A stretch of 41,547 nt of DNA from IMG/VR virus record IMGVR_UViG_2529292882_000020, positions 1 through 41,547 of that record; one strand, written 5' to 3'. Shown piece by piece: positions 13,415-14,161 of this stretch. Positions within the stretch are counted from its first letter, which is position 1, and each line of letters opens with the position of its first letter. The position numbers were made by a program, and so were the translations under genes. The notes under the pieces were generated by a model. The model saw only the letters and a program-made list of their open reading frames with translations. It did not search any database and was not told the DNA's origin. Origin of the DNA: a virus (Duplodnaviria; Heunggongvirae; Uroviricota; Caudoviricetes).

Positions 13415-14161
13415 TTAATCTGGCATTATGGTAGATAATTGTGGGCTAGGTTTAACCCCGTAGGTTTCTGATATTCTTTTAACGTTGATACCTACGATTT
13501 TTCTGACAGCTCCCAACGAAAATTCTAACTCTTTAATCCCTGCGTCTTTAGAAGTGTTGTTCATATAATAACGGCATGCTTCTCGAATTGACTTGCAAAC
13601 GATAAATAGAGGTGATTCATCTGGGATTTGAGAAAGCAAAGAGGTCAAACATGTTCTTAACTCTTTGAGTGATTCGGCAACAAAACAGGGGTTTTCAAGA
13701 TGATATTCTACGAACAAAGCCCCTTTATCATCTAATTCATTTATAATCTTTTTTGCCAGATTTCTTTCATCATGCTGTTGAATATATTTCAAAGCATCGA
13801 AGGTAATATTAATCGAACCTTCAAGACAGGAGCTTATAAGGCTTTCATGATCTTTTTTCCATTTTCTTAATACAGGTGCCGGATAGTCTAGCCCCTGATT
13901 CTTATCTATTAATACAGAACAAGTAGCACACAGCCATATGCCATTGTTAATTGACTTCCTTTCTGTTTCTGATTGTGACATGTCATAGCGTGGGCCATCA
14001 GGAGATGCTGCACATATGTGAGCAGCAACTCCTGTCTTGATTGATTTATTGCCATCAATTGATGGGCCAATGGTCAATCTAGGGCATGAAGGGTTTGAAC
14101 AAATGAATGCTGCCCGCTCTGCTAATTTTTTTATAGTGTCTTTAGAAAAATTATGTCGCAT
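13415..14161 (-). CDS. AT-rich cargo protein with N-terminal HNH-like motif (248 aa), function unknown
   Basis: CSNPSCP...GVAAHICAASPDGPRYD...NGIWLCATCSVLIDKN; strand opposite to late operon; about 38% GC versus about 52% in flanking phage genes. Confidence 0.6.
   Translation of the reverse strand: MRHNFSKDTIKKLAERAAFICSNPSCPRLTIGPSIDGNKSIKTGVAAHICAASPDGPRYDMSQSETERKSINNGIWLCATCSVLIDKNQGLDYPAPVLRKWKKDHESLISSCLEGSINITFDALKYIQQHDERNLAKKIINELDDKGALFVEYHLENPCFVAESLKELRTCLTSLLSQIPDESPLFIVCKSIREACRYYMNNTSKDAGIKELEFSLGAVRKIVGINVKRISETYGVKPSPQLSTIMPD

Follow-up and report, generated by a model that had tools for sequence, protein, structure and literature searches.

The 41,547-nucleotide sequence of the IMG/VR virus record IMGVR_UViG_2529292882_000020 (the window) is that of a mosaic prophage in which lambdoid early and lysis genes are combined with an HK97-type head and a contractile tail, and a 99.9%-identical relative is located in E. 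coli FDAARGOS_1284 at the tRNA-Thr beside proA. The subject of this study is a gene on the minus strand at 13415-14161, encoding a protein of 248 amino acids (WP_001406331.1 in the E. coli RefSeq copies) which combines an N-terminal HNH domain with a C-terminal DUF6650 domain (designated HNH-DUF6650) and which is proposed here to be a putative single-protein anti-phage DNase. A first-pass annotation of the window, made from the sequence without database searches, had noted this opposite-strand open reading frame (ORF), and it was found to be real, as it is present in the ORF list and its ATG start is in register with the N-termini of its homologues (MRHNF or MRDNF). The location given for it, between Q and a terminator and holin, was also confirmed. 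On its left the Q antiterminator gene (12987-13364, plus strand; PF06530, 6.6e-52) is convergent with it, and on its right are a tR'-like terminator (hairpin with T-run, 14254-14275) and a lambda-family holin gene (14428-14754, plus strand; PF05106, 5.7e-25; phrog_126), the first gene of a lysis cassette in which lysozyme and Rz genes follow. The GC content across 13150-14199 is 0.36-0.39, compared to 0.49-0.61 upstream and about 0.44-0.51 in the lysis genes downstream, and the gene is, as had been stated, far more AT-rich than its neighbours. An intrinsic terminator of the gene was identified at 13362-13405 (minus strand) in the 50-nt gap before Q; it consists of a GC-rich stem of 9 bp (13375-13405) and then a tail rich in U, with an RNA fold of -15.2 kcal/mol (z = -4.06; 0 of 200 shuffled sequences were equally stable). 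A weak candidate promoter at 14207-14237 (minus strand), with an extended -10 element (TGaTAAAAT) 46 nt 5' of the ATG and a poor -35 element, was suggested by a relaxed consensus scan alone (8/12 matches).

The HNH assignment made in the first-pass annotation was borne out by comparison with defence-specific models and with solved structures. Local Pfam and NCBIfam scans of the 248-aa protein returned nothing significant (HNH_2, E = 0.086). In the PADLOC scan, the N-terminus was matched by PDC-M68A (7.5e-27; residues 1-130, profile positions 1-130 of 253), by a CBASS HNH 'Effector' model (4.8e-21), by a SAVED-HNH model (4e-19) and by one variant of the Shedu SduA model (4.7e-8, confined to its N-terminal 17-124 region, the HNH-like module), with the PADLOC matches ending at approximately residue 115. 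When a family profile was compared with solved structures, the best match was the SPARHA HNH-APAZ effector 9OM4 (E = 2.9e-13, over residues 10-121); the sequence matches were 9om4, 8ysq, 7rwk, 7rwm and 8fm1, among them four Cap5 proteins. An AlphaFold2 (AF2) model of the protein (pLDDT 84.8) superposed on Cap5 with a Foldseek probability of 1.00. On these matches and on the invariant columns described below, residues 1-115 (13817-14161, minus strand) are placed in the Cap5/SPARHA clade of HNH (His-Me finger) domains.

All of the motifs that had been cited as typical of HNH/zinc-finger nucleases are present (C21-x4-C26, AAH48I, G56PRYD60 and N73GIWLC78ATC81), the first cysteine pair being C-x4-C and not CxxC as originally given. 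In PsCap5, His56 is the general base, and His91 and Asp95 bind the catalytic Mg2+ (PMC12141522). In the HMMER alignment PsCap5 H56 corresponds to H48, N82 to N73, C87 and C90 to C78 and C81, H91 to S82 and D95 to D86; the substitution of the second histidine noted in the first-pass annotation is thus correct and falls at an Mg2+ ligand position, Ser82. Eight residues (C21, C26, H48, N73, C78, C81, D86 and N88) are invariant in 40 aligned homologues, down to 41% identity, and the KLAERAAY motif of the N-terminal helix (residues 7-17) is invariant or nearly so in the same set. The general-base histidine on a beta-strand and the structural asparagine of the beta-beta-alpha-metal fold are therefore supplied by H48 and N73, and the structural zinc site, built from two Cys/His pairs, by C21, C26, C78 and C81. 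Of the two alpha-helix metal ligands, Asp86 alone is kept. Many His-Me finger nucleases use a single Asp/Asn ligand (e.g. the Cas9 HNH domain and T4 endonuclease VII) and, because the general base and one metal ligand are retained and such a ligand can suffice, the HNH domain is probably active as a nuclease despite Ser82. The same HNH module (50-52% identity, residues 2-109) is also found in ORF2 of the P2-EC46 Z-region and in gp001 of Yersinia phage vB_YenM_31.17, 'lysogenic conversion' proteins of P2-like phages, 368 and 312 aa long, with unrelated C-termini; P2-EC46 ORF1, which adjoins the HNH-bearing ORF2, has a Peptidase U49 (Lit-like) domain.

The C-terminal ~140 amino acids had been described as helical and unassigned. 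The first part of that description stands, since the AF2 model of the domain is a helical bundle (pLDDT 91); the second does not, as residues 116-248 (13418-13816, minus strand) are assigned, by profile evidence, to DUF6650 (PF20355), the domain found in ThsG, the effector protein in type VI Thoeris. The assignment is based on precomputed PF20355 matches, which are present on all full-length homologues and on a 99-aa fragment that covers the C-terminal region alone, on the name of WP_001406331.1 in recent RefSeq annotations ('DUF6650 family protein') and on our own profile search, the local copy of Pfam having given no PF20355 match. A seeded search with the C-terminal domain alone gave two proteins and was replaced by an exhaustive profile search of 1.84 billion representative proteins, in which 1167 clusters were detected (470 at E <= 1e-10). 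Most of these are standalone proteins of 150-190 aa with a common core (fLEDRRVLYnPy..E.p.hv..S..EIR..Lt), and the four standalone proteins that were looked up all have PF20355 on record; the profile links to standalone PF20355 proteins had E values of 1e-16 to 1e-27. Nine signature residues (E156, S164, R169, C196, R197, L216, R220, G224 and P247) hardly vary, whether the domain is fused to HNH or stands alone. The structural neighbours of the domain are generic four-helix bundles, with no DNA reader among them.

Type VI Thoeris consists of a TIR protein (ThsB) and the DUF6650 effector ThsG; the TIR makes 2'cADPR upon infection, and added 2'cADPR arrests cells bearing the system (December 2025 preprint, bioRxiv 10.64898/2025.12.03.692087). 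In the same preprint six ThsG protomers are modelled by AlphaFold3 as a tube with pockets of positive charge lying between them, the toxicity route of ThsG effectors without membrane helices is called unclear, and HNH is not mentioned. The system is present in E. coli strains.

Full-length homologues of HNH-DUF6650 (41-95% identity) were found in Proteobacteria, Bacteroidota, Cyanobacteria, Firmicutes and Acidobacteria. When a single genome of each species was scanned, 374 relatives were obtained, about 25 to 30 of them full length and the others limited to the HNH module. Among 5,426 complete E. coli genomes a near-identical gene is present in 25 and a second allele (60% protein identity) in 15 more, giving a total of 40, with all copies chromosomal. 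None of 50,697 records of sequenced phages contained a full-length homologue, and 16 such homologues were found in IMG/VR contigs. Comparison with an 83%-identical allele gave a dN/dS of 0.09 (0.081 for the HNH half and 0.097 for the DUF6650 half; dS about 1.1), which indicates that both domains are under strong purifying selection. Inactivated copies were also observed: one is frameshifted (locus L107, 4001-4743) and another, from a wild-boar E. coli (NZ_CP053787.1; H15/H120), carries an IS3 insertion, while two further contigs (L026 and L111) contain split matches about 1 kb apart. Such occasional frameshifted or IS-interrupted copies would fit a gene that is costly if misfired.

The two neighbours on each side of the gene were compared at 24 full-length loci, ranging from Enterobacterales to Cyanobacteria, Bacteroidota, Clostridia and Acidobacteriota. 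In an all-against-all BLASTP comparison no neighbouring protein was common to any two of the 24 loci, and Pfam and PADLOC searches of 80 neighbours identified integrases, transposases, Lamassu, Shedu, AbiV, PD-T4-1, methyltransferases and other island-type genes; there was no recurrent family and no recurrent TIR among the matches listed, which leaves room for a single TIR neighbour. No adjacent TIR was detected in the window using Pfam, and the annotation of the near-identical FDAARGOS_1284 prophage includes neither a TIR nor a cyclase. As a positive control, the same procedure was applied to 34 standalone DUF6650 loci from metagenomes, and ThsB_TIR (PF08937, 2e-23) was recovered in two of them. 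Tightly coupled upstream genes were frequent at these 34 loci, most of the sampled genes were not TIR-linked, and no TIR neighbour was seen beside four standalone or transmembrane-fused DUF6650 proteins that were checked individually. DUF6650 thus occurs in Thoeris-like pairs and as a standalone gene, and the HNH-fused form behaves as a single-gene unit. One standalone DUF6650 gene (locus L013, 4001-4486) lies within an apparent 2-oxoacid dehydrogenase operon, in the order E1, E1-beta, E2, DUF6650 and lipoamide dehydrogenase, which is an unexpected setting, outside any island, for a domain presumed to be immune.

The gene was also examined in the context of related prophages (sister-prophage loci compared between Q and the holin include L098, L099, L100 and L009). 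Four HNH-DUF6650 alleles (100, 83, 60 and 56% identity), from E. coli, a metagenomic contig and Buttiauxella, are tail-to-tail with Q and precede lysis genes. The right border is formed by a conserved late-operon leader module with the tR'-like terminator (14192-14285, plus strand; hairpin and T-run located by terminator scan). Within it lies a 60-nt element (14217-14276) that ends with the terminator hairpin, precedes different holin types and is shared by thousands of E. coli prophages, among them DLP12 of K-12, where it is upstream of essD. In prophages with the same holin the common sequence begins at about 14192 and extends rightwards only; in one relative, Q and HNH-DUF6650 are common up to 14276, after which the sequences diverge; and the 50-nt spacer between Q and HNH-DUF6650 is not common to related Q alleles. 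From these borders of sequence sharing, a cargo slot extending from the Q stop codon to about 14190 was delimited.

In sister prophages this slot contains an antisense pair comprising a Kiwa KwaB-like gene and its partner, an antisense cluster of three genes that encodes WP_000150292.1 (also a DefensePredictor match) and a YejK-like nucleoid-associated protein, or an antisense pair of hypothetical genes; in K-12 it contains the antisense porin gene nmpC with IS5, and in other sister prophages tRNAs and a methylase remnant, co-oriented with Q. The first-pass annotation had suggested a survey of the Q-to-lysis interval; in lambdoid prophages, antisense cargo recurs in the space from Q to the late leader. 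The copy of the late leader in E. coli ACN001 was considered as the site of the Thoeris system of that strain and was rejected, as its Thoeris lies elsewhere.

The regulatory region of the DLP12 lysis operon is taken as the segment immediately upstream of essD and, on this basis, the late promoter would lie within the conserved leader, on the right-hand side of the cargo. By this analogy the leader at 14192-14285 probably carries the late promoter and the signals for Q utilisation, and HNH-DUF6650 is probably upstream of the late promoter; consensus promoter scans gave only weak candidates on either strand, with none convincing for the late operon. With a late promoter in this position the gene would be divergent from late transcription, convergent with Q and not crossed by late transcripts. 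The first-pass statement that it is transcribed against the late operon accordingly holds for orientation only, the gene being tail-to-tail with Q. The location was likened in the same annotation to that of stx in Stx phages. The stx genes lie downstream of tR' and are co-oriented with the late operon; the likeness is therefore approximate, and HNH-DUF6650 occupies the neighbouring slot on the Q side, upstream of the late terminator, rather than the stx slot itself.

Taken together, these observations lead us to favour, with moderate confidence, the view that HNH-DUF6650 is a self-contained single-protein anti-phage DNase of the abortive-infection type, carried as prophage cargo and activated by DUF6650-driven oligomerisation. 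An accessory defence or abortive-infection gene had been proposed in the first-pass annotation, and that prediction is supported by the effector-HNH matches, by the defence cargo in the same slot of sister prophages and by DefensePredictor (Science 2026), whose prediction table lists WP_001406331.1 as a 'Predicted novel defense gene' with a mean log-odds of 8.58. The HNH domains of the solved Cap5 and SPARHA proteins are inert until a partner domain drives the formation of tetramers or filaments (PMC12141522, PMC12738770); they then pair through their N-terminal helices into a double (composite) active site and cleave dsDNA non-specifically, and the clade is fused to many sensor platforms. Control of oligomerisation by DUF6650 is proposed because the N-terminal helix is kept and because the HNH domain is coupled to a module that, in ThsG, is modelled as ring-forming and ligand-binding. 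In the proposed mechanism, an infection cue would be sensed by the DUF6650 module, leading to assembly or rearrangement of an oligomer. The cue would most likely be an anionic small ligand held in the conserved R169/R197/R220 pocket, such a ligand being favoured because three Arg, one Glu and one Ser are conserved between the HNH-fused and standalone proteins. As there is no TIR partner, a dedicated cyclase is disfavoured, and the cue may be sensed directly or produced elsewhere. The oligomer would bring HNH domains together through their N-terminal helices, and the paired domains would degrade cellular and phage DNA before the invading phage completes its cycle. Expression in the lysogen would be from the gene's own signals, independent of the late operon.

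A number of points weigh against this view. The Mg2+ ligand His91 of PsCap5 is replaced by Ser or Ala in all 40 homologues, and catalysis is not guaranteed; in addition, the 'bridge' Glu of Cap5 and SPARHA, three residues before the catalytic His, is Val45 here and Glu in many homologues. No convincing sigma-70 promoter was identified for the gene, the standard scan giving none and the relaxed scan only the weak candidate. WP_001406331.1 is absent from the legible DefensePredictor tables of tested systems, and no experiment on the protein was found in the literature. DUF6650 is not exclusively immune, because most of the sampled standalone genes are without an adjacent TIR and one is in the 2-oxoacid dehydrogenase operon. 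Precedent is also weak. DS-27 'SMEK' (WP_087896215.1) is a validated single-gene E. coli defence system, the C-terminus of which was assigned to DUF6650 by its authors (HHpred 0.88) and through which DUF6650 was listed among the domains newly linked to defence; it gives protection in MG1655, a strain that lacks a cognate TIR (DefensePredictor, Science 2026). Like HNH-DUF6650, it is the product of a single gene in E. coli and begins with an effector-like domain; the type of that domain differs. BLASTP, hhalign with two profiles (probability 0.2%) and hmmsearch showed no similarity between the two, and DS-27 was not used as a DUF6650 precedent; the only validated single-gene 'DUF6650' system is thus not detected by our own DUF6650 profiles.

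Four other explanations were weighed. The protein may be an orphan effector or receptor-nuclease of the Thoeris type, in which the ligand of DUF6650 is 2'cADPR, or another NAD-derived nucleotide related to it, supplied in trans by a host TIR encoded elsewhere or through infection-induced NAD+ breakdown; it would then respond to the signal of a different system and would not sense infection autonomously. DUF6650 is the 2'cADPR-responsive domain of ThsG, the pocket-type residues (R169, R197, R220, E156 and S164) are conserved between the HNH-fused and standalone forms, type VI Thoeris is available in E. coli strains, and the architecture parallels that of Cap5, in which an HNH domain is joined to the nucleotide-sensing SAVED domain. 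We nevertheless consider this unlikely, as no recurrent TIR was listed beside the 24 full-length loci and none is annotated in the FDAARGOS_1284 prophage, as a solitary and mobile effector that depended on such a signal would often land in cyclase-free hosts across many phyla, and as ligand binding by DUF6650 is modelled only. Were it true, the fusion would act as a 'Rosetta stone', showing that in type VI Thoeris DUF6650 is not the toxic part but the switch that senses the ligand and forms the ring, and it would explain how such switches come to be wired to different killing modules (HNH domains or transmembrane helices). A restriction-like enzyme, that is a constitutively competent HNH endonuclease (an orphan type II or a modification-dependent type IV enzyme) whose C-terminus reads DNA or its modification and which cuts phage DNA directly without killing the cell, is improbable. 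Its nearest labelled relative in DefensePredictor is a UniRef50 cluster termed 'Type_II_REases HNH endonuclease' (35% coverage), many HNH defence enzymes are modification-dependent dimers, and there is the weak Pfam HNH_2 match; however, the 24 loci have no conserved methyltransferase partner, the HNH clade is the one activated by oligomerisation, and DUF6650 exists alone as a signalling effector with only generic four-helix bundles, and no DNA reader, as structural neighbours.

More doubtful again is the possibility that the HNH domain is catalytically dead and serves only as a zinc-finger DNA-binding or oligomerisation module, with toxicity or regulation arising from a DUF6650 ring as in single-domain ThsG. 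The family-wide replacement of His91 would agree with this, as would the toxicity of standalone DUF6650 effectors. Against it, there is no variation at the general base (His48), at Asn73 or at the second ligand (Asp86), and a further invariant residue, Asn88, has been gained; a single Asp/Asn ligand is common among His-Me finger nucleases, and the HNH half has a dN/dS of 0.08. It is very improbable that the gene has no role in defence and is a routine phage HNH homing endonuclease or a gene of benefit to the phage, for example in degrading host DNA during the lytic cycle. HNH genes are common in phages and this one is prophage-borne, but it is oriented against both early and late transcription and has its own terminator, most members of the family are chromosomal, in islands with integrases and defence genes, none of the 50,697 phage records has a full-length homologue, and the prophage already carries a canonical terminase-associated HNH gene (PF01844, 16496-16846). 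A homing endonuclease with an associated intron, which the first-pass annotation had named as the finding that would count against its proposal, was specifically rejected, as the gene forms an independent unit between Q and the late leader, its homologues are in chromosomal islands, and there is no intron, intein or interrupted host gene.

As a putative single-protein defence nuclease, HNH-DUF6650 can be compared with several known systems. Cap5 (HNH-SAVED; PsCap5 8FM1/8FMF/9DIF and AsCap5 7RWK) has an HNH domain of the same clade (Foldseek 1.00, sequence E values down to 1e-8), with the N-terminal helix, the position of the zinc site, the general-base His and the Asp ligand in register, and likewise carries, within a single polypeptide, the nuclease and a regulatory or sensor domain C-terminal to it. 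It differs in that HNH-DUF6650 has no SAVED domain (no Pfam match) and no adjacent CD-NTase, being solitary with Q and the holin as neighbours, in that its sensor is the four-helix bundle of DUF6650, and in the change of His91 to Ser82. With ThsG it shares the PF20355 family over its C-terminal 133 residues, including signature residues common to standalone members, some of which adjoin ThsB-type TIR genes; ThsG is always paired with a TIR gene, whereas here there is an HNH domain and no ThsB. The SPARHA HNH-APAZ effector (9OM4; PMC12738770) is similar in nuclease clade and, as predicted by analogy for HNH-DUF6650, in activation by oligomerisation; SPARHA keeps two catalytic His residues, and the present protein lacks an APAZ domain and has no short Argonaute partner among its neighbours. 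The likeness to PDC-M68A is confined to the HNH module (residues 1-130), with profile positions 131-253 unmatched, and PDC-M68 is a multi-gene candidate whereas HNH-DUF6650 is solitary. P2-EC46 ORF2 and vB_YenM_31.17 gp001 have the HNH module and a location in phage cargo hotspots in common with it and differ in their C-termini, while similarity to Shedu is limited to the HNH-like module of SduA, with no DUF4263 match in Pfam.

HNH-DUF6650 therefore joins a known effector clade to a just-described sensor/effector module in a new, solitary and prophage-borne combination. No description of this architecture, or of its implication for ThsG, was found in the literature, where the family has an entry as a DUF and the protein itself was picked out by machine learning. 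That DUF6650 is fused, widely and under constraint, to an oligomerisation-gated type of DNase argues that it is a sensor and assembly switch, which bears on the question of ThsG toxicity stated in the type VI Thoeris preprint, and DNA cleavage would offer an easy read-out for finding the DUF6650 ligand. The protein also adds a new sensor partner to the Cap5/SPARHA effector clade and provides a candidate single-gene defence system, and the locus documents that, in lambdoid prophages, the interval from Q to the late leader can accommodate antisense defence cargo. In practical terms its importance is modest, given the rarity of the gene in E. coli (40 of the 5,426 complete genomes).

Three other features of the window were recorded. 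The PF01844 HNH endonuclease gene (16496-16846, plus strand; 5.3e-15) is directly 5' of the small and large terminase genes; it is the usual packaging-associated HNH gene and is unrelated to HNH-DUF6650. A second AT-rich cargo gene (15704-16417, plus strand; GC 0.34-0.40) is located between Rz and this HNH gene and encodes a 237-aa product with an N-terminal hydrophobic segment, which matches phrog_9267 (1e-42) and has no Pfam or PADLOC match; two IMG/VR contigs contain the gene at 99.9% identity, and it is absent from the otherwise near-identical FDAARGOS_1284 prophage. The DUF968 gene 5' of Q (11950-12984, plus strand) is broken, the ORF list showing two ORFs of 99 and 226 aa; compared to the intact 329-aa copy in FDAARGOS_1284, it has an amber codon (TAG in place of TGG) at 12247-12249, and 39 nt are duplicated in tandem and in frame at 12099-12137.

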